A stretch of 62,579 nucleotides of DNA, filler included, from Rhabdomonas costata (Eukaryota), in the NCBI GenBank assembly GCA_019059605.1. It is 27 parts of 27 records of this genome, joined end to end, with 100 filler letters (N's around TTAATTAATTAA, not from the genome) between each part and the next. Parts side by side here need not be neighbours in the genome. Positions count along the whole stretch, not along the records: positions 27,867 to 30,088 come from JAHMHO010004747.1; 26 more parts are not named here. One strand, written 5' to 3'. Below are positions 13,110 to 57,249 of this stretch, one piece after another. Within the stretch, counting starts at the first letter, position 1, and the number at the start of each line of letters is the position of its first letter. The position numbers were made by a program, and so were the translations under genes. The notes below the pieces were generated by a model that was given only the letters and a program-made list of their open reading frames with translations, was not told the DNA's origin and searched no databases.

Positions 13110-13763
13110 TCATGGCGATGGAGCATCCGTGACAGCAGCGGTGGGTGAAGTGGCTCCGCCCTTCTTGGGTGAAGAGCGACGAGGGCCTTGGGAAATCATC
13201 AGCTGCTTGGCCCGCTTGAGTTCCTAAAAACGTGGAGAGAATTGTGCAGCGCGCCTTTGTCGAAACGCACCGATACTCCGGAGGTCGTAGCACCAACAAA
13301 AAACCAGCTGACTCGAACCCACTTCCATCGTCTCAAATAAACACGCACGTAGATTTAAGTGAACGCAGTTGCTTGGGGAGAGAGGGGAAAAATTACCAGT
13401 GGCAAGTTTGCTTGTTATCTTCTGGTTCAAACACGTGGCCACCTTCCCAACCGCACTTCTCCGCCAAGCTAAGCAATCGGATGATGCTCTGGAACGAGTT
13501 TTGGATGCCAGCCTCTCCCAAATTACAGACCTTCAAACAACCCTAATTACCCTGAATAAAAATATTTTGGCGTGAACCTCGCGCTCGGCGGCGATCTTCA
13601 CCTCCTCCTGCTTGCTCATGTGGGCTCGGTATTCCACCATCTTAGCGCGGCGCTGCAGGTTGCCCTCCTCGACCTCCTCCGTGGGGTGCACGAACTCCAC
13701 CCCGGCCTGCACCAGCGCCTCCTCCGTGGGACGGAACATCTCAAGGGCAGCGATCATCTTGTC
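13110..13763 (-). CDS. PFR2: Paraflagellar rod protein, PFR2 type, last two exons
   Basis: Exons 13763-13578 and 13223-13110 (GT-AG) give DKMIAALEMFRPTEEALVQAGVEFVHPTEEVEEGNLQRRAKMVEYRAHMSKQEEVKIAAERE ELKRAK...SP*. This matches the PFR2 C-terminus (EEVExGN..VEYRAH..EELKR). Confidence 0.92.
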
Positions 13764-14083
13764 CTGCAAGGCCGGCAATTGGGTGCACATCGAGGAGTCA
13801 GAGCACACTCACCGCCCCCCCCCCTCCTTGAATAGGGNNNNNNNNNNNNNNNNNNNNNNNNNNNNNNNNNNNNNNNNNNNNTTAATTAATTAANNNNNNN
13901 NNNNNNNNNNNNNNNNNNNNNNNNNNNNNNNNNNNNNGTGTTGGGGGAGAAGACGGACAGTGTGGTGTGTTACACAGCGGCGGTTTGAAAGGTCATGGTC
14001 CCTTCTTTTGTCTAGGATTTCAAAATTTACGTTAGGTGTTGAAGAAATCCAAAAAGTCGTCAGGTCGTTTGTTTTCCAGAGTG

Positions 14084-14319: not shown

Positions 14320-16261
14320 GTCCGCATCCCTCGGTCTTAGTTTCCGGGTTTTCCGGGCGGAGCAGCCAGCACGGCAGCCGGTTTGTGAAAGAAGGTATTG
14401 GCGGGAAGTTGCTTGATCTTCATGATTTTGATATACCTAAAATTTTCCAAATCGCAGATGATTCTGCTGCTTGCGGGCATTTTTTGGCCGCTGGGTTTTC
14501 CATGCGCCATCTTTGCGCGGAAGAGGTCAAAGGCCACCACTCCATAAAGCCACGGCCACCGAGACAACTGCACAAGCCAAACGGGCAGTTCCCGGCCAAG
14601 CAGGTCGAAAGCAGACGGTCAGCCCGCAGGCCGACAAGAGGCCATAAAGGGCCCAATCTGGCGGGAGAGCCAAAAAGCCCGAAAAAAAGGCTCAAATGGC
14701 CCGAAACCCCCCGGGGTTTTAAACCGATGCTAGCGGTCCGTTCTTCGGCCAGCTTGCCGTTTTCCCTCTCGACCCTTTGGTGCGCCGACTGTGGCTGGCC
14801 GAAAGCCTGCGTTCAGCGTGCCGGCCTTAAAAAAGACCAAATCGGGCGTCCCGCGCTCTATATAATGACTTTAAAAAATGGGGACGGGGAAGCGGCCATA
14901 ACACGGCGTAAAGAACCTTTCCGTGGACAGGAACGGCCAACCAACTCATCCCAGGGAAAATACCGCCAAAAACGACGATCACGATAGCGAAGGCTCAAGG
15001 TCCGGTCTGGTGGTCGGATCTGGTTCAGTCTAAGAAGGCACCGGGATGAGATCACCCAGCCTTGACACGTGAGATGCCATCCTCGACGCCGAAGAGGTCC
15101 ACCCCCACAAGGAGGCTGGACGCCCGGCACACCTCCCAGGCCCGGACGTGAACGCTAGAAGGGTGAGCCTGGGGGACGCGCCCCACCACCAAACAAAAAG
15201 AGAAATAGTTGTCAATGGCCAAACCTTGTCTTTTCATTTGCGCTGCGCGAGTTCAGACTTGCCAGTATATTTTCTTGGAGGCAGGCAGGTAGGTCCGACG
15301 ACTATTCCGAAGTTCCAACATGAAGTGCTCAAGGGGTCAGCATCCACAAGTAAACAAAAGGCAATTTGAAGACAAAAACAACAAATGGCCCGAAATGACC
15401 CCAAAACTAGCTTCTGCTGTCCCTGCGTTAAGTAAGTCACAGTACTGTGAAATGTTCACGGTTCATGTCACAATTTCACAATTTCACGTTCCGACGTGAC
15501 ACTCGATCATCGCAGAAGACCCTTGCGCTGGCAAACCTTAGCATCTCATCTGTGGCTGCCTCCTGTGTCACTCAGCGTGAGCTGGGGTTTTGGGGCTGCT
15601 CTACCTGATCAACTATGGCTGATCTGAGCACGGGATCTGTTGTTCTCTGCAAAATTCTTAGCGGCAATGTGCCTGGAGCTCTCTTCACAACACTTGCGCT
15701 GGCCGGCGTCCTGACTGTGGACGAAGTGGGCCTCTTAGGTGGGGCGGGAGTGGCCCTGTCTCCTGACCCCACTAGTCTACACTCTTCTGAAATTCTCCAA
15801 CTGACCCCTTCAGCACACTTCTCTGAACCAACACCGTCTTAGCCAATTCACAATCCCTATAAAAGTGGCTCGTACTTTCAAAATAACTGCACACTCTTGA
15901 ATGAACCTGCGGCTTCGCGTTCTCCAAACTTGAACTCGGAAAAGGTGACTGCTGCCTGATCCCTGTGGAAGTCGGTCTTGGGGGTCGAGGCGGGGAGACA
16001 TCTACACTCCTGTGAAACGAGGGAATTCTGGGTCTACAGCTTCTAGACGGTGTAGGTGATCTGTAACCTCGGCCTCCTCTTCCCGTGTATCCTCGATCTC
16101 TGAAAGCCAACACAAGGATACACGGGAAGAGGAGGCCGAGGTTACAGATCACCCACACCCCNNNNNNNNNNNNNNNNNNNNNNNNNNNNNNNNNNNNNNN
16201 NNNNNTTAATTAATTAANNNNNNNNNNNNNNNNNNNNNNNNNNNNNNNNNNNNNNNNNNNN

Positions 16262-23415: not shown

Positions 23416-25443
23416 GCGAGTGAGGGGCCCTCCCACTTGGTGGAGGAGGTGCATTCGGAGGCAGCGGCGGAGGAGGCGGAGGCCGCGGCCAGGCTGACTC
23501 GGATCAAGCGCTCCGAGGGAGCTGTGGGAACCACGTATGCCATCGCCACCCTTAGAACACGCATTAGTAAAGCCCTGAGCCCGAGTTCGGGAAAACCCTA
23601 AATGCGAAATGCGCAGCACATCAAAGAAAACTGCCGAGGGAGAAAACTGACTCAGTAGTGTGCATTAAGCCTCTAATAAGGTGGCCTGCACAATGTGCTC
23701 GTTTCCTGTGTTTCTTCTTCTCCTTCTGCCTTTTTGAATTGCCGAAAAAAGGCTCAAGTGTCGCTGCCCGCGTCATCGTATTACTTTCTATTTTTGGTGT
23801 TTTCTTTTTTCCAAGACGGAAGCGCGCCCGGGACGTCTCTGATGATAACGCCGACCTCTTCGAAGACACCGCCCGCAACGACGGCGAAGAGGGCCTCTTT
23901 GAATGATGACTCTCGTTTCCTTGACAGTGAACGCCCAGGGGGGGCAGGCGTCACCTGCTATTTTCTACTGTTGTGGCGGCCCTGGGTTGAGTCGGTCTCC
24001 AGAGCGAACATTGTGACTTTCTCACTGTTTCTGAGAATGGAGTATTGGCGCCCCGTAACGGTGCATTTCCCTTCCGGATTACCTCCTGTGGGTCGCTTCT
24101 CGGGGCTCTGAAAAGCCGTAATAGGAAAATGAGAATAAGTACCCAGATACTGAAACTCGCTCGAAAAAAAAAGGTTGCAAGGTTACCGCTGTATCCACAA
24201 CCCATTCCATAATACCCACCCAAGCTTGGCAGCAGCGGTACAACTCAAATTCTGCAGATGGTTTCCCAATTTTTAATAATGGGGTACGAAGACTCTTCCT
24301 TCTAAGATGACGTCACTCTCCCATCTCTCCCATCTCTGCTCCCATTTCTCCAACGCCTCCAATCATTCCGGACATGCTCCACCCCAACCTTCCCATTCCT
24401 GCGCTATCTGTACGACTCGCGCTGGTTCGGCAGCCGTTGTACAAGTGGATCTCAATAATTTGAACAGAGAAATGCCGGTCAAATGTTCATCGCAGGAACG
24501 CTGAGTGATACTTCGCACAGCCATGGGCTTGGGCTCCGACGCCCCTCAAAGAACCATCGCACCTGATACCCGGGACAAAACTTCGAAGGTTGTGTATGCT
24601 CTTCCCCTTCCCTTCCCCCAACTCACTGCGATACCGTTCGATGGATGTGAGAGTTTACCACCTGTTTTTTCAGCCCTCTTTTTTGTGTCTTCCTTTCTCT
24701 TTCCCACTTTTCCCCCTCTCCGGTAGCGCCAGTACTTTCCGGAGAATCCGAGAATTCTTTTCTCAATGTGGCACTGGAACAACCCCGCTGACGGCCTGTG
24801 GTACATGTACAACATAGAGACGCAGGCCGAGCTGTCGCAGGCAGCGAAACGCGGGCGGAGGCTGGTTAGGGTTGTGGTGGACGGCATGGCCGTCACGGTG
24901 GACTTGGTGAAGCTACGGCACACCCTGCACGGGGAAGGGCAACGCCCGATGGAGGGCGCAGTTCGCTACGTCGCGGGTGTTTTACGGCAAGTTTTCTGAT
25001 TTGAGGAAGGGAGGCTGTCTTTTTCCTTCGACCTATACCTTAACGTTTTGACTTCCAAACCGAACCTGCCTGGAATGGCTATCGATGACTTCATAAGCTA
25101 GATTGGTGGGTTAGGATTTTACCGCTTTCTTTTTTCGCTGATACCGATGAGAATCGCAATGTTTTGCTTTCCAGCGGATGGAGTTCTCTATGTGTCGGAG
25201 ACTTCAAGGCGCAGCATTCCTCCACGTAAACCATGGTGCATGTTGCCGCACTTTCGATTTTACCACTGCTCGGAGGGAATCCATAATTATTGTCCGCCCC
25301 AAGTCTCGAGGTTTTTATCTTCTCAACAGCGCCGAGATCCTCGCGCTTTGACAACTCCTCGCGTCCCCGCAGCGACCCCGGCGTGGAGGACCTTGTCCTC
25401 CCCTCGGAAGCCAGAGATCCCCACCCCCGCCGTGGCACTTACC
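23416..25443 (+). CDS. WWE-domain protein, internal fragment
   Basis: Exons 23416-23492, 23816-23892, 24521-24588, 24727-~24955 and probably 25330-end. WHWNNPADGLWYMYNIETQAELSQAAKRGRRLVRVVVDGMAVTVDLVKLRH fits the WWE pattern. The first two introns need GC donors to keep phase. Confidence 0.65.
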
Positions 25444-28240
25444 NNNNNNNNNNNNNNNNNNNNNNNNNNNNNNNNNNNNNNNNNNNNTTAATTAATTAAN
25501 NNNNNNNNNNNNNNNNNNNNNNNNNNNNNNNNNNNNNNNNNNNGGTGTGTGGTGTGATGTGTATATTTGTGTGCGATTCTTGTGGCGCAGGGTGTGTGTT
25601 GCGTTTAGTATGTGTGCACTGTATGTGTGCATGATTTTCTGTGTGCGCTTTTGTGTGTTTTTGTGTTGTTAATGTAGTTTTTCTGTTGTTTGATTTTGTG
25701 TTGAATGCGTGCATTGAATTTTTGTATGCTGTATGTACTATTATTTACTGAATTGGTTTTTACACGTGGTAAATGTGGACAAGTGACGAGTTCTGTTGTG
25801 CATATATAAAGTTGTTTACGCGTATCATTTTCTTAGTCAACCGTGACAATCTTATTTATCCATTTGGTGCGTATTTTGTGTGACCTAAAAGCAAATTATT
25901 AGTAGTATTTGCATACACGTTATCGCTAAAATGTTGAAGAGCGTGGATGCGAGTGACTGTACATGAACCCTAGAATGATTTCGTGACATATAAAGAGGCA
26001 TCGAATGCAGTAGCTACGACATAAGTAAACAATAGCATCGCGAGAACATACAAATATTGAGCTGAAGTGCAAATTTTACATAAACAAACATCGCATTTAG
26101 TATGAATATGTTTCTGATGTACAGTTTGGTAATCAGAGCGTGTCTACATGATCATATATGCTGACGTCGTTGAATTGAATTGTTAACCAAGAAGTGGCTT
26201 TGGACCTTGTGGATGATGTACTATTATGTGTGGTAATCATAATGTTGGTATGTCGTTGTTATTTTTATCACGTTTTTGCGATCTGTTGTTACTCAGCAAT
26301 ATCCCAGCACCATGTATACACTATTGCGGTTTGTATAAAACCTACTTAATAACATTTTTTGTCTGTGCGTGTGGTTGGTAGTAGCCTGGTGTCAACGCCA
26401 GTTTGTCTGCGCTGTTTGTAAACAGTATGATCCGAGCTACTATTGTGTTTATGCTGCAATGCTGATGACGATCAAGGAATGACAAAATACCCAATAGATA
26501 CAAACCTGGCTACAGACCTGGACACTCTACGCATATGTATATGCTATAATATAAAAATATATTTGGCATACATTCAGAAGTGAACTTTTTTTTAGGAAAC
26601 ATGCGCATTGCATACCAACACCCTGCGAGATGAAATATCCTGATCTATGTGGAATGTGTGTTGAAATATAAACGCTCCAACTTTGCTTGTGCGTTTGTGC
26701 ATTCTATTTTTGCTTGTATTGCTTCTGTGTGAAATGTGTAAGCAAACGCCTTGGTAGATGCAAGATATCCTAAACCGCACCTCCACGCTATCAAAAGGGT
26801 GTTTAAATCAGAGATCAATTCCAGCAGAAGCACCCAGCGCTAAACTCATCATGGGAATAATGTCGTGTGAAGAGAAGCTTTTTCAGCTTCCTTTATATGG
26901 GGCCGATTTGCAACTGGAGGAACCCAGGGTTTTGCATTCTTGCTATCATGTGGAAGTCTCTGTTCTCTAGATTTGCCTCTGCCTCTGAGTGAAATGCAAA
27001 TTGGTATTATAAATTTGACGCTTTACTAGTTCGAATCCCGAAAATATGAAGAATTGGAAGTCAACACCATAGCGTATAGTCAGTGCTGGCCGCTTCGCGT
27101 ACAGTCGACCATTTCATTTCGACTGGAACCGGGTGTAACCGTGCTTGAATATCCTTGATTATGATGTCTGTTGAGTGTCACTGGTAAAATGGGAATAAAC
27201 AGGCTGAAAGAGTCTCCGGGTATGCCAAGGGCTTTGCGGAAAACGGTAGTCACAGAGTCTTTAAAATCTTTCATGTGCGAACACTTTTCTTTTGCGGTGC
27301 CCTAGCCGACCCATCAACACTGCACCTAGGAGTTTCCAAAGAACAGTTTGCATTTGTGTGCTTTCGGCTCGAGAACTTTTCATTCAAGGTTTTCATCATT
27401 TGTGTGAACGCCCCGAAACAGTCCATACACAGAAACGCTTTGATAACATAGAGCATTGCCAAGCTCGTCATTTTCATATTAAGGCAAGGAGCCGCGGGTT
27501 TCAACAGGAATCGTTTAGATCATCCGTGACAGCTTTGGTAAGGTTGGCAATGTTGCGGAGAAGGGGCGGCCACGGCGGCCGAAACCTGTCGCACACCATT
27601 TCCAGATCGCGCGGGACATTCGCTTTCCCCATTTTTGCCATCACAACTAACTCTCTTCCAGCCTTGTGGTTTCTTTGTTCGCCCCCGCGCCTTTGTTGAA
27701 ATTTTTTTGGGGAAGTTCCTCCTTTAGAATCTGCTTCCTCGAACCCCTTTGCTGGCCCCCAAAACCNNNNNNNNNNNNNNNNNNNNNNNNNNNNNNNNNN
27801 NNNNNNNNNNTTAATTAATTAANNNNNNNNNNNNNNNNNNNNNNNNNNNNNNNNNNNNNNNNNNNNGTTTTTGTGTGAGGGCCGCCGACGGCCACCAATG
27901 ACTCATACGGCACGATCATAAGTGGCCGTCGGCGGCCCTCATTACAAAATCGCTGTGTTGAACAAAATCGTGTGTGTTTAGCCCAAGGCACGTTGGCCAC
28001 AGTGAAGATGATGCCTGATCATCTGGCCATCCCGTCTTCTGCGATGGTGAGCTGTGTATGTGCCCAAAGTCCGCTGGTAGGTGTGTTGCGTTCGGTTCGA
28101 GCGAACAATAGCTCACAAAAAGAAAAAGGTCAAGAATACGACAAATACACATAATGGCAAAAATGAATGAAATTCCGGTGGGTTGCTTCTGGAAAATTCT
28201 TCCCTCTCTTCATGACGCATGACGAAGGGGCGCTTGAGAC

Positions 28241-29784
28241 CTGCATTGAACGCAGACGCCGGCACGGAGGGCCGGATGCATGGAGGTGGCACCACCATGT
28301 GGGACACGATCAAGTCCCGGGGGTGGGAAAGCGACGGCTTCATGTCCAGCAGCTCGATATCCTCGAGGGGGATGCGGTTGAACAGCTGCAAGCACTCCTG
28401 CGCAAGCGATGCGGGATGACGAAACAACGAGCAAACAGAGCAAGTTTTTTTTACGGCAGACACAGCGGGTACACAGAGAACCCCGCCGTGTGACGCACCC
28501 AAGATATCCAACTTGACCCGATTTTCCACTTTTTCCCAATCGCATTATTTCGGCAACGCGCGGAGCAACAGGAGACAAAGCGCAGCTGGAAGTGACTTTC
28601 AACCACCGCAAGCAGAACAATTACCAAACGCGGGCTCGCGCCCATGCTATTCCTTTTGGATCGCCTAAGAACACAATCTGGAGCGGCAGATGCCCTGCGC
28701 ATGCCAATGGAGTAAGGTCATGCTGAGCCTTGTGGATGTGCGGGCGAAGCTCAGGGTTGGCCTCCAGGGGGTTGGTTAGCTGGGCGTCAAAGGTTTCCTT
28801 GAGCTCCTCGTTCTTCGAAAGCTGCGTCAGACCCCATCCCCAATGAATCACTTCCGATGAAAAAAAAAAGGAGCCTGAGCCCACTTTAAACTCATCACCA
28901 AAGTCAACACCGGAACCTCGCGTGAAAGTACGCTACGGCCCTTGCAAGAGAAAAGCGTTATAGAATCTCGTCGTCTGAATTGCCGAATTCCATGAATGAT
29001 TAATTTTTAATACTCAGATTTCAAGAAGAATATTCTAAATAGATCAAAAACGAGAACGCACACACCGAGCGCTCATGGCAGTCATTAACCAGCGGTTATA
29101 AACAGTGGGGGCTCAACAATCTTGTTGTGATAAATGCAGCCTATACCATTGAAGTTTCACCAAATTACGCCCGCACATACGCTACTTCCTCTGCTCTATT
29201 ATAGAAACGACGAATTCTCAGCACATATCTCAGTCAGAAGCCACGTACAAACGGACCCCCCCCCTGGCCCATTCTGCACACGATTACCAGGGATGTTCTA
29301 ACGGTTCGAGGTTTGACTTATGAATGAATTCAACTGAACGTAATCCTTTTTTCGACGGTGACCCGGATTCCAGACACTTTGCTGACCAAACATCCGACAT
29401 CTGACATCCGTCCGAAGAGAGTGTTTCAAGGGGAAAACCTTTCACAAGTTGGCCGGGAGTGCTGCGCCTCACCCATGTTGGGAGACTTTCTATCTAGTAA
29501 CACGCGCATCGCCCTCCCTAAAGGGAGTCCACAGCCCACCCTCCAGCATCCCAAGGTCTTGCACCCTACCCAGGACAAATGCCACTTCTTTGGCCCCTTC
29601 GCAGACAACAAAAAACAAGAGCGAGAAGCGAACGCCATATGCCTTGTAGCGTTCATGGCAGAGCCTGAGGTGAGGGAGCTTCCGGACATTGCCGTTGACC
29701 GCCCTGCACCACGGGCAGGTCACAACCTTCTTGCACTCCGCCTCAACCTTCTTCCCAATCGCAGCCCGGGCTGTTGAGTGCAGC
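28241..29784 (-). CDS. RPC1: RNA polymerase III largest subunit, N-terminal clamp region (3 exons)
   Basis: Exons 29784-29643, 28821-28705 and 28397-28241 give [85 protein letters not shown], colinear with RPC1/POLR3A. Both introns are GC-AG. Confidence 0.92.
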
Positions 29785-31245
29785 CTGGGTTAGGGGCAGC
29801 GTGATGGAGGATATTAGGACAATGTTTTTAACTGATGCTGAGGATGAGGAAAATTATTGTCTTTAAAAAGCTATAGCGATTCACTTATGCTGGAAAGTAC
29901 TGAAGCGGAAAGACACCACCATTACACAATTCTAATTCGCATCGTTTTTCGTCAAGTATCCCACCTTTTTGAGGCATAAGGAGGACAAGCCAACACACAA
30001 TAAACGAATTAACGGGTTTGAGTCTAATTTAAAGTACCCGGCACCAATCTATTTGCCCCCACCCCGGGCCAACAATGCCCCCCCAACANNNNNNNNNNNN
30101 NNNNNNNNNNNNNNNNNNNNNNNNNNNNNNNNTTAATTAATTAANNNNNNNNNNNNNNNNNNNNNNNNNNNNNNNNNNNNNNNNNNNNTGTGGTGGGTCC
30201 TCTATTGTTCTTTGCTTGAACTTCCTTACTCATCTCCTTTGTACGATAACACTGCATCGGCGCCTGCACCGTCAAAGCAATTAGCACTCGAGTGGTGCCA
30301 CAGAAGCGCAAGGGCCCTCAACCCTTCTGCCGCAGCTGCCGAGGCCTTCTCCAAACAGCTCGGCACAGCCAGCACCACAGCGCGTACGCGTACTGCACCA
30401 AGGGGTTGGCCACCACAAGAGCACGGTAGGCAGAACGCACCAGGCGCACCACGTGGGAAGGCTGCACAACAAGGTATAAGAAACCTGTATGTCAATGGGT
30501 TGGTCACCACAAGACATTATGTCCCAATGCGCCAATTCATTAATAAGCATCGTGTCAACGAGATGAGTAAGGAAGTTCAAGCAAAGAACAATAGAGGACC
30601 CAGAGCAACAGCTCTGACATCTACAAAGTGAAGCGCAGGCTCACAGAGAGAGTTCCCTCACACAACACGCAAGAAAGCATGGTAAACATGGAAAGGGAAA
30701 AATAATATAACTTATATGTAATTAGAATAGAATACATTACACACATCACAATGCAGTCCGGCGGTTCTGGTCTTTGTGTGTATTCTTCTTTGAATCAGTG
30801 ACAGTTGTGTCTGTTTGAGTATTTCTTCTGCCTCTTTCTCCGAGATTTGCTCTTCTGCCCGCAATGAAAAAAAAGGAGGTCGGGCTTTGCCTGCTCCTCG
30901 TTTTTGTTTACTTCGGGCTCCAATCACAACGACCACTGGTCCGTGCTGGCTCGTGCCGCCGCAGAGCTGTGACTTTTTAATCTGTTCTGGGCTCCGCACA
31001 AGACGCAAGACAGTTTACAAAACAAAAGCCAAAGGGCAAAGACAACGGGCAAAGCCGTCCCCAAAGTGTCGATCACCCTTCCAAATCACTGGGCTTGCTA
31101 ATGGCTTATACGAATGAAGCCATGGTTGCAATGCAAAAAAAAGAGCAGCAGCTGTGTATGCTTGTGAACCTTGGTAATCCGTGAAAACGAAATGAGAGCA
31201 GGGAGCTCCATGCCGTTTTCTCCCGCCTGGGTTGCCCTGACTCAC

Positions 31246-37185: not shown

Positions 37186-39376
37186 GTCAGCCTGACTATA
37201 CCCAGACGCTTGACTTCAACGTCCAAGACGTGCCGACCCCTGACCTTCTCACTGGGGCATGGTTTCGGGTCCCAAGGTTCGGTCGGTTTGCACAAGTGTG
37301 TATTATTAGCCAGAGAGGCGAGAGATTTTTGTGCGATTTATGTCCCATCTCTTTGTAAGCATCGTTTTTGCCATGCATCTTCCTGATTTTTCTGGTCGGT
37401 GGATACGATTAACTCGTGCCGCATTAAGCAAGGTTACTAGAACACACGGCATCAATGGCGGAGAATAGTTTTTGCGATGATTTCCATCCTTCTTCCACAG
37501 CAGTGCGTCCTTCATAGCCTCTTTTTGTGGTTGTGCGGGAGGGCAGTGGCGCGTGACAACAAAGAACAAATGCTGGTGTAAAAGAGATGGGAATACCCGC
37601 AGTTCAAGCTTTCTGCACCACATCTCTCATGGCCGACCTTTGCCGGTTCACCTTTCGCCGGAAATGTGAATGAGAACGTGTTGGTGGAGGTTGGCGTTAA
37701 CCAAACGAGCGAAATGGGAGCGTGAGCGTAAGAGACAGGAGACGAAACTGGTATCTCTCCTGCTCCCACAGGTCAGTCCTGTGCCTTCGCCAGCTGCCCT
37801 GTGCCTTCGTCGTTTCCTGATATTCTCACGGTTTGTCCGCAGAATCCCTGCACCGCGGTAGATGAGTGCTGCACCGAAGGTTCTTAACTCGCGTTCGTTT
37901 TTTTGTTTCATGTCCTTTTTCCTTTTCAGTGCTCCAGCACCAGCAGCTTCTTGTGGCGGAGGGTGCGTCATCCTTTTTGACCGATAGAACTTTTTTCGGC
38001 AGGTTTTATTTAGTAGTCGTGGGCGTGCTTTCGAAGACCTGACCCACCTTCCGTCCTTTTCACTCTCTGTTCACTCACCGTCTTTGTGTGTCTCAGTGTG
38101 CAACATCACTATCTTCGGGAGCTTTGAGATTCACTCTGAGGTCAATGGCCTGTACATCCCATGCGGGCTGCAGAACTGGCGCCCGGTATACTGCCAGAAC
38201 ACCTCTAAGCTTTTGCTCTGGTTCGGCTCCTTTGGGTGGCGTATATGCCGATCCCAGGACGACCCCGGCTCTTTGGTGTGCAACGGGGATCCTTGCTTGG
38301 CCCAGAGTAGTGGCTTCTCGCCCACTCCTGATCTGCTGACCACCGCGTGGTTTGTTCTGATCGATGAAACTGCTTCTGCTCGGGACGACGAGATGCGATC
38401 AATCTGCTCAGGTGTTTTTTCAGGTTTCCGCACCCGTTGCAGAGGCGGCTTTGGTTTTCGCTTTCAATTTTCCGATGCAATTTGCGTAGCCAGATTTCCC
38501 GCGTCAGCTTCTGCTTTGCTCTCGAAATATTTTCCCCAAGCACACTCTCCCACCTCTACGAGCCAACCGATTGTTGGATGTATTGAGTTGAGGCACGTAG
38601 AATAGAAAGATGTAGGTGAAGCGGCATCGGACAAAAGAACAAATTGAACGCGTTCTGTAGAAACTTGTCAAAACGTGTGAGGTTCTAATGTTAGGAGCTT
38701 TCCCCATTTTTTGATCTGTTGGTTATTGGTTACAATAGACTAAATCACGTCACTGCGGCACAGGCATAGTAATTCTTGCAGCGTAGTTCAGCAACAAACA
38801 GACAATCTACAAAAACCCGATGAGGGCGAAGCCGAAGCAGGCTGGGGTGGGGGGTTCTGTCCCAGATCCTGGTTTTACCCTGCTGAAGTTTCGGTCGACG
38901 TTATCTGTCTGTGATCTCTCTTCGTGGACCGTTCCAAATACCAGCCCGTGCGAGGGGAACTGGCTGGGCGTGTCCTGCGACACCGACCTTCGAGTGGTGG
39001 GCCTTGACCTTTCCGGCAAGAAGTGCTTTGGGTTTCTGAATGAGCACGCGTTCATTCTTCTAGGTCAACTACCTCTCCAAACATTAAACCTCAGCTCGAA
39101 TAGGTTTGAAGGCTTTGAGAGTTTGAAATTTTTGCCCCCAACTCTGAGAAACTTTTCCCTGTCTGCGAATCCGCTTCTCACGGGTAGCCTTGATCTGAGC
39201 GTTCTACCTGCCCAGCTGGAAACCCTAGACCTGAGCCAGTGCAAGTTTTATGGCCCGGTGGACCTCAGTCGTCTCCCAGCCTCGGTGCGTAACCTCAGGC
39301 TTTCTTCGAATATGTTCGTCGGGACCGTGGATTTCTCCCAGCTTCCTTCGGGCCTGCAAACGCTCGACCACCACCC
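37186..39376 (+). CDS. Extracellular LRRNT-LRR surface protein (GP46/PSA-like, plant-type LRR) preceded by a repeated Cys/Trp module
   Basis: Exons 38097-38411 and 38866-contig end join in phase 1. LRRNT LSSWT..SPCEGNWLGVSCD is followed by ~23-aa repeats LxxLxLSxNxFxGxxDxSxLP. An upstream exon near 37186-37281 (boundaries uncertain) shares PTPDLLTxAWF. Confidence 0.8.
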
Positions 39377-44016: not shown

Positions 44017-44937
44017 NNNNNNNNNNNNNNNNNNNNNNNNNNNNNNNNNNNNNNNNNNNNTTAATTAATTAANNNNNNNNNNNNNNNNNNNNNNNNNNNN
44101 NNNNNNNNNNNNNNNNTGGTGTGGGTCACATGGTGGGAAGAAGTCAAAGCTCAGCCTTAGCTCTGACTTCTTCCCACCATGTGACCCTCTTCCTCCTCCT
44201 CGCTTCATCACACAACACCCTGCCCTCCACCGCTTTGGTGGTCCGTGCCTTCCTTCCATCGGCCCTTGCGTTGTGTTCCTTCCACAAGGGGTGTGTGGGT
44301 TACCCTCGCCGAAAACCCCCCCGGTCAGGGCGGATGAGGGGTGCCTGCGCTTCCTACTGTGCTTTTTGGACCATCCCGCGTTGTTTGCCGCCCGCCCTTT
44401 CTTCAGGAAAGGACGTGCGGTAGCTTTCCTCGCTCCCCTTCCCCTCCCTACGGTGCCAGTATTCACTGGAATGCAGCAAACCTGACTTTCTGGGTTTTTT
44501 GAGGCCCGCAGCTTTTCCCGAAGACAAAATTTGGATGGGCTCCACGTCAGGTTTATCATCCGGGTTCACGGCAAGGCGAGGATGAATTGTCCGCCTTGCT
44601 TCAGCTACTCCAGTTTTACCACACGTTTGGGTATGTGCCACCTTTGTTCTCGAGAACTGCGGGACCGATTTAGATCTGAACGGTTGTTTCATTGGCTGCT
44701 ACCCATTCCTCACCTCGTCTGCAACTGTCTGTGCCTGGTTTGTGTGCGGTTCTTCTGTGGGCAAAGAACTCCGAAACAGTAACAGCAGTAATGATGACGC
44801 ACCCTTGTGCTCGATTCCTCTCCCACGTGCATATCACTGGTATTTCGTTATACCTTTCTTTCGAACGTCAGTACTTTTGTGCTCTGATTGAACAACAAAC
44901 CCTCTCTTTTTGTTTTTTTTCTACTTTAATTGTAAAA

Positions 44938-51451: not shown

Positions 51452-52948
51452 CTTGGTCACCAATTCCCAGGATGGCCGAGGAGTCCGTGGCGACGATCAT
51501 CCGGATGTCCGTGAGGTAGTAGCTTCCCACAATGTTGTCCGCGTTGTTAATATTGCGCGGAGAGAAGGACAGCCCACGGGCTGTGGGAACCAGAACAGAA
51601 CAGAAAGAGGCTGAAAGAATCAAACTCCAAGAGTGACATAAAGAGGGTGTGTTTGTGTGTGTACCCCTTTCATGGTACTGCTCCTGCGAGAAGGAGTCGC
51701 AGGGTGGCTCAAACGTACTCAACGGCGAAGGTCAGAAAGGTATCCATAGCATATGTTGGCATGCCAAGAAGGTGAGCCAGAGACTGCATTGCTGCTAAAA
51801 GATTTGAAAGCACAGTAATTGGGAAACCCTTTTGGGAACCTGCTGAAGTTGTGCTTTCTTTTTCGTTTGTGGTGTGGTCACAACCCGAATGTGTATGAGT
51901 GTGTCGTACATGTGAGACCTGAAGAGCTAACGAGTTCAGAAAAACGAGGTCCATGTTTCCCAGTCTGTCAGAAATCAGGGAACTCTTACCATCCGCCAAA
52001 CTCTGGTCCGCACAATTGCATCGGTGGACTTCAGACTTCCTTACCTCCGCAGCCGTCGCATTCAGAACTTTAATTTTGTCTCACCCGTGTCTCAACGACC
52101 AGTCCCCTGCTTTTTTTGTCGTAGAACTCGGGGGGGAGACCCCTGGACAGGTTATTTTTAAAGCAGTTTAGGTCAGTTTGTCAGTGGCTCCACTAATGGA
52201 CTTTTTCTTTTATCTTGGGCCGCGGAGCGCAGCTTCGGAGGGGGGAGGTTATGGATATTATGTGTGTGGGGTATAAATAATTTTAAACCCCTGTGATATT
52301 AAACGCACGCCTTCCCGACTCATGTGGGCTTCATGGTTTTTTGCGAAGGGGGTGGGGCAGTTTTATTCAAGCCCCCCGAATCCCCCTACCTAGAACGTAC
52401 CCAGGGCAGGGCAGGGGCAACTTTTGTTTTTGGAACGCCTGAGAAGGGCCTTTTTGAACTTTTGCACAAAACTGAAGTATACAGTTTCTTTGAAGCTAAT
52501 CAGTGGCGTTTCCTGCTCTCGCTGAGAGGCTAGCAGACACCATATTACCCATACAAACTGTCTGTCAGAAAAAAGACAGGGAATTCTTTCTACCGCCGCA
52601 CTCTGGTCACATAAACACGCATACATGCTTCGGTGGACACTCTCACCACCTGTGTCTCAAGGACCAGTCCCCATACCCTTCCCGCGTCTTGCCGCGTCTT
52701 GCCGAGCCATGCTTTTCCACGAGCTGCTGGCGGGAAGGAGGACAAAGAGAGGGGAGAGGTCGGAAGGTACACCGTAGTTGTACATGTAGGAGTACTGCTT
52801 GCACGCGTCCCCCACGGTGGGGGTGTAGATGATCGGCAGGCACTCCTCCAGGTGCTCAATGATCAGGGCGTAGTACAGGTGCTCGTTCCTCTCCTGCAGG
52901 TCGCGGAGGTACTGGTACTTCTCCAGCGGGCTCCGCAGCGACCGGAAC
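51452..52948 (-). CDS. Malic enzyme, N-terminal domain (2 exons)
   Basis: Exons 52948-52773 and 51580-51452 (GT-AG) give [64 protein letters not shown]. Confidence 0.95.
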
Positions 52949-54020
52949 CTGGGCCAAACCCACCGACACATTTTCGCACTATTATATCATTAGGGGTGTC
53001 CCAAAGCAAAGGAAGCATGACAAAAAATCAGTCCTTCCAAGCGCGTGTAAAGGGAAAAAAACACCCAAAGTGGCCCAAGACAGCTGTAACCACAACGGCA
53101 AAAACACCCAAGACGGCTGTAGATTCAGTACGAACTCAAATCCCATCCTAGAATGAGAATAGAGAAGATAATATTAACCTGAAAATATAAGCATACAACA
53201 GCAACAACTCGCATTTGCTTTTTAGGCTAAATTTAAAAAGATCGCAAATTTCACCACGTTCGATATAGTATCCTAAACTTTGATGCTCGTCAAAAACACA
53301 AAANNNNNNNNNNNNNNNNNNNNNNNNNNNNNNNNNNNNNNNNNNNNTTAATTAATTAANNNNNNNNNNNNNNNNNNNNNNNNNNNNNNNNNNNNNNNNN
53401 NNNGGGGTGGGGGCGGCGGGTTTTGGTGAGCCGGATGGAAGCTGCCAGAACCAGAACCGACCGGAGCGCTTTGGTGGTGGGCTGGACGTGGTGAACTTAG
53501 CCCGTGGACTGTGTTTCGTTTGGGTTTGATTGTCTTGTTCGGGCGGGGCTGTTCTGAAAAGTGCGTGGTTCCCCTGTGTCGTGGACAAATGACCAGGTTG
53601 AAGCCACCAATGACCAGTGAATAAACCTCGCGCGATTTTAGTCTTGAATCTCTCGATCCTCCGCGTCGGAAAAATGGATTAAGTCTGCAGTAACGCCGGA
53701 TTAGACTCGGATCGCAATCGGAAAGCACGTTTTCCGTTGTCTTGTGCACCATTCTAAACTCGGTTCTATATAATGTGCTGAGAAGCAGTTCATTTGAATC
53801 CACTTGGAAGAATCATCCAGTTAGTCAACAGTTCGTACAACATGCCTAAGAAAAGGAGCTGGAGCACACCTTGTGTCTGTTTTGGGCAGTGTGCTGGTCC
53901 CATGGATGATCCCACGAACCGTGAAACCCGATGTTTGCGTACCTTTATGATTAGCGCAGTGATCTGCTAGTTTTCTTTTTCGCCTGCTTTTTCCTCCACA
54001 ACTTTTGAGGTGAGTGCCAG

Positions 54021-55623
54021 ATGACGTTGGTGAGGCTTCCCAATGATCTGTTGTTGTTCAGCTTTCAGTTCCTTCGCCTCAGGTCACAGGTAGAGCTTCG
54101 GCAGCTTTGCTTGCGGTTCCGCACTCTTGTGGACGCCTCCCTCGCTCCAAAGTGGAAAGTCGTCCTTCGTCTCCCACAGAGCCTGGAGAGTCCCGGCAAA
54201 GAAGGACATGGCGTTCTTGATAAAATGAAGTTGTGCTGCTCAGCGGCGGAAATCGCGATAAAGGGAAGCAACCTGGTGGTGTTTTTCACCCTTCTCCGGA
54301 ACCCATCCTCGCCGCTCCTCTTCCTTAACCTGATATCCTTGGATGTGGGGAAGAACAATTTCGGGGCCTCGGGAATGCGGGCGCTGTTGGCGTCCCCTTT
54401 TATTCCTGGTTTGACATTTTTGGGCGTGAGCCACAATAAAATCGAGGACGCAGGATTTCGTGCTCTGGCTTCTTCAACTCTCTTTACTAGTCTGACGTCG
54501 TTGGTTGCTTGGGGCAATTTTATAGGGGCGATAGGGATGCACGCGCTGGCGACTTCTTCTTCCTTTCCCGCGCTGACGTCCCTGGATGTTGCCGGAAATA
54601 GTATCGGTGCGCAGGGAATGCACGCACTTGCAACCTCGTCTTGTTTTTCCCAGCTTAGAGCCTTAAGTGTTAACCACAACAAGGTCGAGGATGCGGGGGC
54701 ACAGGCACTTTCCCGCTCGCTCTTCTTCCCAAACTTGAGATCCTTGAATATCTGCCTCTGTCGTCTCGGAGTTTCTGGAATACAGGTGATCGTGTCCTCC
54801 TCGGTTCTCCCGGACCTGACGTGGTTGGATTTGAGCAACAACCCAATCGGGGATGAGGGAGTGAAAGCTCTGGCAGCCTCTTCCTTTATTCCTAGCCTGG
54901 CGCGTTTAGGTTTGCGCAGTACTGATGTAGGCAATGCGGGACTGCAAGCCCTGGCTGCAGCTTCTTTCTTCCCGAAACTAACGTCTTTGGATTTAGGCTA
55001 CAACAAGTTTAGTGGCGCAGGGGTGCAAGCGCTGGCAGCTTCTTCGGTTTTCCTGGAATTGATTCTCACCAACAATTTTGTCGAGGACGTTGGAGTGCAA
55101 GCGCTCGCCTCTTCGGCTTTTTCCTCCACCTTGAAATCTTTTGACATCAGCAAGGGTCAGATCTGCACCCTGGGGATGGAAGCCTTCGCGGCTTCAAAGC
55201 TGTTTTCCAGCTTGACCTCTCTAAATTTCTGTGACAACCAGGTCGGGGCTGAGGGAATGCAAAAACTTGCGACTTCGTCTTTCTTCCCAAAGCTGTCTTG
55301 CTTAAATGTCGGGGCGAATGACATCCGGGATGCAGGAGGCCAGACCTTTGCGGCTTCTTCCTTCTTTCCTGGACTGATGTCTTTGAATGTGAGCATGAAC
55401 AAGATCACTCCAGCCGGAATGACGGCGCTGGCGTCTTCGCGGTTCTTTCCCAGATTGACGTCCCTGGATGTTTTCGGAAATGAAATTGAAGATACTGGAA
55501 TGCAGGCTTTGGCAGGCTCTTCTCATTTTCCAGAGCTGTTATCATTGAATGTTGGCCATAACGGCATCGGGTCGTCGGGAATGGAAGCCCTCGCCGCATC
55601 ATCTTTCTTTACCAACCACAAAC
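54021..55623 (+). CDS. Intronless F-box + RI-like LRR protein (3' truncated)
   Basis: Uninterrupted ORF of more than 530 aa. N-terminal F-box LVRLPNDLLLFSFQFL..LRQLCLRFRTLV, then ~15 28-aa repeats LTSLDVxxNxIGxxGMQALASSSFFP. Confidence 0.9.
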
Positions 55624-55755: not shown

Positions 55756-57249
55756 GTCCGGAACCTCTTTGAGATGGCCCGGGAGTCCCAGCCCTCGATC
55801 GTCTTCGTGGACGAGATCGACTCCCTGGGCAGCGCCCGCGGGGACGGCGACAGCGACAGCACTCGGAGGATCAAGACGGAGTTTCTGGTGCAGATGCAGG
55901 GCGTAGGCCACGGAGGGGCCCAGGAAAGGGTCCTGGTTCTCGCCGCGACGAACTTGCCGTGGACGTTGGACTCTGCGATCCGACGAAGGTCGCTGCCATA
56001 AAGTGTCTGAATCAAGTGCATTCGTTTGTATTGTCAGCTGAAATCGGAAGTGGCGCACTGCAAAACCGATTGAGAGAGAGAAGAAAGAAGAGCTAATCAC
56101 ATCATATTGGGGGCAAGTGAGTAAAACTACTGAAAACAACTGAAGGTTGGCATATCAGTGTGCGAAGAGGCATAGAGATTTCTGCTCAAATATTTGCAAA
56201 ACAGGAGTACGCAAGCACGAGGCTTTCTGCTCCGTGTCCAATGCGGTGCAGGTAATCATATGTTTGTTAATAATGGGAGTAGGAGATTCCGGCTTTATTT
56301 TGTTTTCATTTTGTTTGCGGACATTCCGTCCTTGGTTTCTCCCTCTCCAGCGTGCGACTAAAAAAAGGACATGAATGTCCTTCTCAGCGGTAAATTTTCT
56401 GCAAATGGAACCCATTTCGCACCTTTTGCATGTGACCTGGCCTTTAGGTTTGAGCGGAGGATCTACATTCCCCTTCCCGAGGCCAACGCCCGCGCGGCGA
56501 TGTTCCGCATCCACGTCGGCAGCACCCCACACTCCCTCACCCGGTGCGCCCTCACTTCTGCGTTGTGTTTGCATCACATTTCTGCTCACATCATTCGGAT
56601 TTTTTTTAATTTCACAACGAAAAACAGAAAAACAACGGCATGGAGACGAGGGAATGGACGAGGGCACGAACGCAGAGTAAAAGAAACGGAAGGTGGAGAG
56701 GAACACACGGACGTAAGACCCTCTCATCCATTGCGAAGCACTTTTGTGTTTGCCCAAGATTCCTGTGACAATGTATTTATGCAATATAGCTCCCCGTCCC
56801 AACCACCACCACCACCAATGGACTTGGGAAGCGGTAATTGCTTGCAGGATGGTAAAATAGTAGGTAGTCGAAATTCCTTTAAGAGTTGATCTTTGTGTGG
56901 GTGGGAGGCGACGCAATGCTTACCTGCAGGTGGCGTGTAGATCTGTGAGGAAGACAGGTTGCCCCAGGGTCAAAAGACGAACTCCCCCCCCCTTTTCTTT
57001 CCCGGATGTGCCAATTCTGCCATTTGATCACTTGTTAGAACAGACGGGCGGATAGTTGGATCGCTGGATACAATATCTGTTTTCTGGAAGTGTTTCTGTG
57101 TGTGTGTGTGTGTGTGTCCCAAGGGCCAACTTTGAGGAGCTGGGGCGGCTGACGGAGGGTTTCTCGGGCTCTGACATCAGTGTGGTGGTGCGCAGTGCCT
57201 TAATGGAGGCCGTGCGGATGGTCCAGTGTGCGACCCACTTCAGGCAGAA
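55756..57249 (+). CDS. VPS4: Vacuolar protein sorting 4 AAA ATPase, internal (3 exons)
   Basis: Exons 55756-55988, 56448-56543 and 57124-~57249 give Walker [52 protein letters not shown] and [19 protein letters not shown]. Confidence 0.95.

Follow-up and report, generated by a model that had tools for sequence, protein, structure and literature searches.

Does a gene with two consecutive introns that begin with GC, and not with the usual GT, betray an unusual spliceosome, or does it display something ordinary for its lineage? The question arises from a 62,579-base window (the whole stretch of DNA analysed here), in which one contig, at positions 27867–30088, is identified by homology as carrying part of the gene for the largest subunit of RNA polymerase III (RPC1), read on the minus strand as three exons. 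A reading made from the sequence alone had placed GC-AG borders on both introns between these exons and had taken non-GT donors to be far more frequent than usual, which, if true as stated, would point to an unusual spliceosome. We find it likely that exons 1 to 3 of this euglenid RPC1 gene are split by two conventional U2-type GC-AG introns; the raised rate of such introns is a published property of euglenids, ordinary for the lineage and already known.

The window is not a single continuous locus. It is composed of 27 unlinked, size-sorted contigs, each 2217–2225 bp, from an extremely fragmented eukaryote draft assembly, and the contigs are joined by linkers of the form N44-TTAATTAATTAA-N44 (for example at 27767–27866 and 30089–30188). 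Reading across a linker, or treating genes of the window as neighbours, is invalid, and the 31 introns counted in the sequence-only reading were drawn from these unlinked contigs and not from one locus.

The RPC1 fragment and its intron borders

Exon 3 matches residues 224–267 of human RPC1 in a PDB search (E=4.4e-9), and has a Pfam RNA_pol_Rpb1_1 match; on these two results the gene is identified as RPC1. The predicted parts of the fragment, with a slash at each splice junction, are listed here from the 5' end of the gene.

29785–30088, minus strand: 3' part of the intron upstream of exon 1, with an ordinary CAG acceptor, ...CCCCTAACCCAG/G
29643–29784, minus strand: exon 1, colinear with homologs P0001, P0152 and P0153
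28822–29642, minus strand: putative intron 1, 821 nt, GC-AG, AAG/GCATATGG ... GTCTGACGCAG/CTT
29632–29633, minus strand: alternative in-frame GT donor, GGC/GTTCGC, 9 nt downstream of the GC donor
28813–28814, minus strand: alternative AG acceptor, CGAAG/AAC, 9 nt downstream of the CAG acceptor
28705–28821, minus strand: exon 2, 117 nt, 39 codons, a length shared with three euglenid homologs
28398–28704, minus strand: putative intron 2, 307 nt, GC-AG, TTG/GCATGCGC ... CGCTTGCGCAG/GAG
28695–28701, minus strand: TGCGCAG at positions +4 to +10 of intron 2, a direct repeat of the intron's final 7 nt
28398–28404, minus strand: TGCGCAG, the final 7 nt of intron 2
28241–28397, minus strand: exon 3, with the PDB and Pfam matches
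27867–28240, minus strand: 5' part of the intron after exon 3, with an ordinary GT donor, CAG/GTCTCAAG (CAG/GTCTCA)

Upstream of exon 1, a stop codon lies just 5' of an LHS motif that is common to RPC1 homologs. No further RPC1 exon was recognised between 28240 and the contig end; a candidate fourth exon reading TIAEDG, at about 28040–28060, was rejected as a chance resemblance with an incompatible frame and a stop following it.

Homologs were gathered by word-based searches, exon 3 giving P0001 to P0003 and residues 150–300 of P0001 giving P0152 and P0153. The nearest RPC1 is P0153, a EukProt record that we take to be transcript-derived, since its accession begins with GGOE01, the prefix of the Euglena longa transcriptome (10.1101/573709). 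From HEKY[KR] to V[VAT].. after DD[LI]TPL, exactly 39 residues are found in P0001, P0152 and P0153, and 40 in P0002 and P0003. When both GC donors are used, the spliced fragment of 130 aa aligns without gaps over 129–130 residues to P0153, P0001 and P0152 at 57–62% identity, while the best identity among the other 263 proteins fetched is 52.5%; a representative search gave no relative more than 52% identical to P0001. Since the three Euglena-type RPC1s are ~75% identical to one another and only ~60% identical to the RPC1 of the window, the organism is placed by this gene outside the Euglena cluster.

The borders of intron 2 are the better determined. We enumerated the donors at 28790–28561 against the acceptors at 28520–28331 that keep an open frame (10,592 pairs) and scored each pair against three homologs by global alignment with BLOSUM62. 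The top solution, at 617, is GC-AG, and its only equals are the same pair moved by one position in either direction, which yield the same mRNA; a variant of the same length, with Ala in place of Glu and nonstandard ends such as TG-AG or GC-GT, reaches 613. No GT-AG solution does better than 561–564, and the best ones insert 9–10 residues into a conserved segment. GC-AG is the sole solution colinear with six homologs, and the final 40 nt of exon 2 contain no GT. On these comparisons the GC-AG borders of intron 2 appear firmly placed, being as well fixed as protein evidence permits. But for its C at +2 the donor, TTG/GCATGC, is of the GTATG type that two of the local GT donors show, and it has G at +5; the 3' end, with 13 pyrimidines in 20 positions, falls inside the range of 12–16 of 20 found in the GT-AG introns.

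Intron 1 admits a rival in which it is a GT-AG intron, running from the GT at 29633/29632 to the AAG at 28813 or the CAG at 28822, so that intron 2 would be the single GC-AG intron of the gene. The form from 29633 to 28813 gives a protein of equal length, with AYG replacing LSK, and its alignment scores are indistinguishable from those of the GC model: 303 against 302 with P0001 to P0003, and 514 against 516 with the three euglenid homologs. GT-AG introns are also ~15 times commoner than GC-AG introns in the published euglenid sets. The form from 29633 to 28822 fares worse with the euglenid homologs (482), adding three residues and breaking their 39-residue length.

Codon usage separates the two equal-length forms. 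The verified exons, which include 54033–55622, 52774–52938 and 24766–24975, hold 1224 codons, among which Tyr is written TAC 20 times and TAT never, and GCA is rare outside an F-box gene. The alternative needs both TAT and GCA: the coding-versus-intron log-odds are -3.07 nats for GCA TAT GGC (AYG) and +0.41 nats for CTT TCG AAG (LSK). Its donor, GTTCGC, has T at +3, found in none of ten local GT donors. It also passes over the CAG to use an AAG 9 nt beyond it, which established behaviour in 3' splice site choice disfavours. The tie is broken for GC because of codon usage, donor shape and acceptor choice, the last being our inference. The GC donor itself, AAG/GCATAT, has A at +5, as has one of the ten local GT donors. 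We regard GC-AG borders for intron 1 as highly likely and the GT-AG alternative as unlikely; taken together, both GC-AG introns are probably real, intron 2 firmly so and intron 1 on the codon evidence.

The same codon count shows a strong third-position bias in this genome (G 453, C 434, T 216, A 121 over the 1224 codons), and this bias helps to separate exon from intron.

The coordinates and dinucleotides first given for the two introns hold up on the minus strand (AAG/GCATAT...GACGCAG/CTT and TTG/GCATGC...TGCGCAG/GAG). The accompanying statement that protein colinearity fixes both holds for intron 2, where 617 stands against 561–564, and fails for intron 1, where a GT-AG alternative is tied.

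Removal by the spliceosome or by a nonconventional pathway

In the nonconventional introns of euglenids, positions +4 to +6 pair with -8 to -6, usually as CAG/CTG (Milanowski 2016, PMC4770533), and the ends have been summarised in the code N3-CDG...CH'G-N5-6/R (PMC12501133). When the RPC1 introns were asked as nonconventional or INTERMEDIATE, neither fitted the nonconventional code, and the borders of both are GC-AG. Read by hand, positions +4 to +6 and -8 to -6 are UAU and UGA in intron 1 and UGC and UUG in intron 2, so the defining pairing is absent from both. Shifted nonconventional registers were worked through by hand for the two introns and rejected, the frame being broken or a stop created. 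A U12-type identity was likewise rejected, the U12-type 5' consensus being RTATCCTT, which neither donor, GCATATGG or GCATGCGC, matches.

What speaks for a different mode of removal is the pairing of the intron ends themselves. TGCGCA, present at both ends of intron 2, is self-complementary, so that positions +4 to +10 and -7 to -1 can form an 8-bp helix. Computed on the chimera of Gao 2024 (10 nt, U7 and 10 nt), terminal pairing amounts to -10.0 kcal/mol for intron 2 and -6.1 kcal/mol (5 bp) for intron 1. The former value is reached by 0.66% of 5000 random pseudo-introns and by 0.54% of 4630 of G[TC]..AG form, all taken from the window (P=0.0054–0.0066), and the null for intron 1 is 6% (P=0.06). 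For the ten GT-AG introns delimited in the window the values are 0, -0.5, -4.8, -0.6, -6.5, 0, -3.2, 0, -1.0 and 0 kcal/mol. When the whole of intron 2 is folded, its ends are paired in the minimum free energy and the centroid structure too.

These observations could be taken to mean that one or both introns are nonconventional or 'intermediate', with GC...AG ends by chance and with removal, in whole or in part, that is structure-dependent and possibly spliceosome-independent. We consider this improbable. Besides the missing +4 to +6/-8 to -6 pairing and the broken frames of the registers that would fit, the whole-intron fold of intron 2 is no better than those of shuffled sequences (z=0.57), one GT-AG intron itself reaches -6.5 kcal/mol, and none of 12 homology-anchored introns in the window (see below) is nonconventional; the pairing observation is, moreover, post hoc and made on two introns. 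The conventional and intermediate introns of Milanowski 2016 resemble intron 2 in joining canonical borders to pairable ends, here at -10 kcal/mol, but the register of pairing in intron 2 differs from the +4 to +6/-8 to -6 rule given there (PMC4770533). That work holds end pairing in conventional introns to be probably unrelated to nonconventional introns (PMC4770533). The passages on E. gracilis intron ends report terminal pairing for the GT-AG and nonconventional introns and do not treat it for the GC-AG class (PMC11170887).

One may also imagine, with about as little likelihood, that the GC-AG introns here form a structurally assisted class, in which the outermost ~10 nt at either end would pair with each other and so offset a weak U1 contact or permit both pathways. 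If both pathways served the same intron, such introns would be true 'intermediate' introns, whose existence is left open by Milanowski 2016 (PMC4770533). For the two RPC1 introns we infer that splicing takes place at the predicted sites and that removal is spliceosomal and not nonconventional.

GC-AG introns in the window and in euglenids

An independent tally of introns was built from stop-to-stop open reading frames (ORFs) of at least 60 aa, 450 of 583 being scanned against Pfam. Every junction with two adjacent exon pieces backed by a profile or a homolog was taken, and no examined junction was dropped; the WWE gene, the donor of the third Vps4 exon, and the leucine-rich repeat (LRR), EF-hand and paraflagellar-rod (PFR) pieces stayed outside it. 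The result is 12 complete homology-anchored introns, 135–1192 nt in length, of which ten are GT-AG, two are read as GC-AG and none is nonconventional.

Malic enzyme: two introns, GT-AG
Vps4-like AAA ATPase: two introns, GT-AG
3-hydroxyisobutyrate-dehydrogenase-like: two introns, GT-AG
GH81: one intron, GT-AG
N-terminal methyltransferase: one intron, GT-AG
Adenylate/guanylate cyclase: two introns, GT-AG
RPC1: two introns, GC-AG as predicted

All ten GT donors read GT[G/A/C][C/T], GTATGG and GTATGT among them, and eight have G at +5. For the WWE gene, to which two further GC donors had been assigned, the homolog search found no homolog longer than the exon, and the one exon end that is visible offers a plausible GT donor, GCGG/GTGTTT; the GA donor of the sequence-only reading was looked for and not located.

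The earlier count of five non-GT donors among 31 introns is thus not reproduced by our ten GT-AG and two GC-AG introns among 12. The raised GC-AG rate behind that count does survive: two of 12 has a probability of 0.13–0.17 at a base rate of 5.4–6.3% and of 0.006 at 1%, and four of 31, taking the GC donors of the sequence-only reading, has a probability of 0.08–0.13 at 5.4–6.3% and of 0.0003 at 1%, so that both are compatible with the euglenid base rate and incompatible with a rate of 1%. Explaining the GC and the GA donors alike by the spliceosome, as had been done, is not safe, because many euglenid non-GT introns are nonconventional and maybe not spliceosomal. At the Rfam gathering thresholds the window gave no match to any family, U1, U5 and U6 included, and a scan of the window at E<=1 gave nine weak matches, none to a spliceosomal small nuclear RNA and most of them contig-end hairpins.

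The base rates used above are those of euglenids, and several observations point to that lineage. The C-terminal exon of a PFR protein lies at 13536–13808 on the minus strand (PF05149, E=4e-18; a PDB search with this exon gave no match), and PFR proteins are phylogenetically limited to euglenozoans (PMC8061765). Within that group, median intron lengths in diplonemids are 37–107 nt (PMC12621601). We assign the window to a euglenid because of the PFR gene, the E. longa-type nearest RPC1, and intron lengths of 135–1192 nt that are unlike those of diplonemids. Dinoflagellates, Oikopleura and Eurytemora are alike in being lineages with frequent non-GT donors, GC and GA donors being common in dinoflagellates. 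A dinoflagellate affinity was rejected in view of the PFR gene and the E. longa-like RPC1; the dinoflagellate spliced-leader motif is absent from the window, which is weak evidence. GA-AG introns are known from E. affinis and O. dioica (PMC7072748).

In E. gracilis, 28,337 introns comprise 11,527 GT-AG, 659 GC-AG and 16,151 nonconventional introns, the GC-AG class making up 5.4% of the conventional introns with a mean length of 522 (Gao 2024, PMC11170887). The GT-AG donor consensus there is GTGTG, all five bases of which pair with the 5' end of U1, one G-U pair included, while among the GC-AG donors only the G at +5 is prominent (PMC11170887). The RPC1 introns resemble this class in their GC...AG ends, lengths of a few hundred nucleotides and weak consensus, with G at +5 in intron 2, and in coexisting with GT-AG introns whose consensus, GTGTG there, resembles the GT[G/A][C/T]G of the window. 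They differ in that intron 1 has a purine-rich 3' tract where E. gracilis has a C-rich one, and the window as a whole differs in an RPC1 only ~60% identical to the Euglena type and in having no nonconventional intron among 12, against a share of 57%. At that share, none of 12 would have a probability of 4e-5, and in E. agilis the share is 71.8% (PMC12501133); the absence of nonconventional introns from the tally fits a species resembling the heterotrophic euglenids and not E. gracilis or E. agilis.

Another likeness is offered by the heterotrophic euglenid Rhabdomonas costata, whose draft genome has an N50 of 1194 bp, a GC content of 51.6% and almost only conventional introns (Soukal 2021, PMC8219788). 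In the intron workbook of that paper, raw strings counted over all sheets, with transcript isoforms included and the classes other than GT and GC standing in more than one sheet, come to GTAG 4549 and CTAC 4912, GCAG 308 and CTGC 326, and GAAG 90 and CTTC 95, or 634 GC-AG against 9,461 GT-AG strings, GC-AG being ~6.3% of the two summed (PMC8219788). The passages of the paper that deal with these introns group them as GT(GC)/AG and do not discuss the GC-AG share (PMC8219788). A fragmented draft, mostly conventional introns, the GC-AG share and some GA-AG introns match the composition and the intron mix of the window.

Elsewhere GC-AG introns are rarer. They have the same dinucleotides in animals, fungi and plants and are presumed U2-type there, but stand around or below 1%, GT-AG introns making up 98.3, 98.7 and 97.9% respectively (Frey & Pucker 2020, PMC7072748).

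If our reading is right, the ordinary spliceosome would remove both RPC1 introns, with U1 and then U6 recognising a short and degenerate 5' splice site, for which the euglenid consensus is GU[G/A][U/C]G. A C at +2 would cost one base pair, and this cost would be tolerated in euglenids more than in animals, fungi and plants, at a share of ~5–6% of euglenid conventional introns against ~1% or less elsewhere; the donor of intron 2, GCAUG, differs from the GUAUG donors found locally just in the C at +2. In animal, fungal and plant GC-AG introns, near-consensus flanks compensate. The putative tolerance of a relaxed +2 position in this spliceosome, proposed at the outset, is compatible with the literature. 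The weak donor consensus invoked with it is real and has been published for euglenids, although the GCATG of intron 2 lies nearer to the local consensus than had been assumed.

Weighing the evidence and what it means

Several points tell against two conventional GC-AG introns in this gene. A GT-AG form of intron 1 is equally colinear, and the codon argument that decides against it rests on just 20 Tyr codons. The 3' end of intron 1 (28822–28845) is G-rich, GGGGATGGGGTCTGACGCAG, with 7 pyrimidines in 20 positions against 12–16 of 20 in the other 11 introns. The end pairing of intron 2 is unusually strong, a trait of nonconventional and intermediate euglenid introns. The tally is small, with 12 introns from junctions recognisable by Pfam or homologs in 450 of 583 ORFs, and the word-based searches gave no RPC1 protein of the same species among the homologs. 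These points are allowed for in our judgement that two conventional U2-type GC-AG introns are likely, a reading that the alignment scores of intron 2, the codon usage around intron 1 and the published euglenid rates favour. A last rival traces the GC donors to a base error that put C for T, to a collapsed allele, or to an RPC1 pseudogene in decay, in which splice sites would no longer matter. It draws on the extreme fragmentation of the assembly (27 contigs of 2217–2225 bp) and on inverted repeats suggestive of assembly or amplification artefacts at contig ends, the RPC1 contig included, but is very improbable when three exons are open and conserved (57–62% identity, without gaps) with catalytic-core motifs such as CIRPSV intact, when independent errors would have had to hit the same position in both introns of the gene, and when the share of GC-AG introns agrees with the rates published for euglenids with transcript support.

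The inverted repeats in question are near-perfect and lie within ~10 nt of a contig end in three of the 27 contigs (27876–27941, in the RPC1 contig, 44123–44187 and 16049–16159). Their arms are 26, 32 and 45 nt long and 92–98% complementary, with weak miRNA-like Rfam matches, and have the look of hairpin artefacts of assembly or amplification, not of genes.

Elsewhere in the window, a single open frame of 538 codons at 54009–55622 on the plus strand encodes an F-box and LRR_6 repeat protein without introns, where other genes are made up of short exons. A plant-type LRRNT_2 domain with LRRs after it (E=2e-7) is encoded by an exon at 38787–39374 on the plus strand, and this gene may have a green-algal or plant-like affinity within the euglenid. 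The second Vps4-like intron has a (GT)n run immediately 5' of its CCCAAG acceptor, at 57090–57123 on the plus strand.

The RPC1 gene of this window thus re-discovers a documented trait of euglenids, a degenerate and short 5' splice site with GC-AG introns at ~5–6%. For annotation, the consequences are that gene models in euglenid drafts must permit GC donors, and that protein colinearity taken alone can mislead, as the equally colinear GT-AG decoy of intron 1 illustrates.

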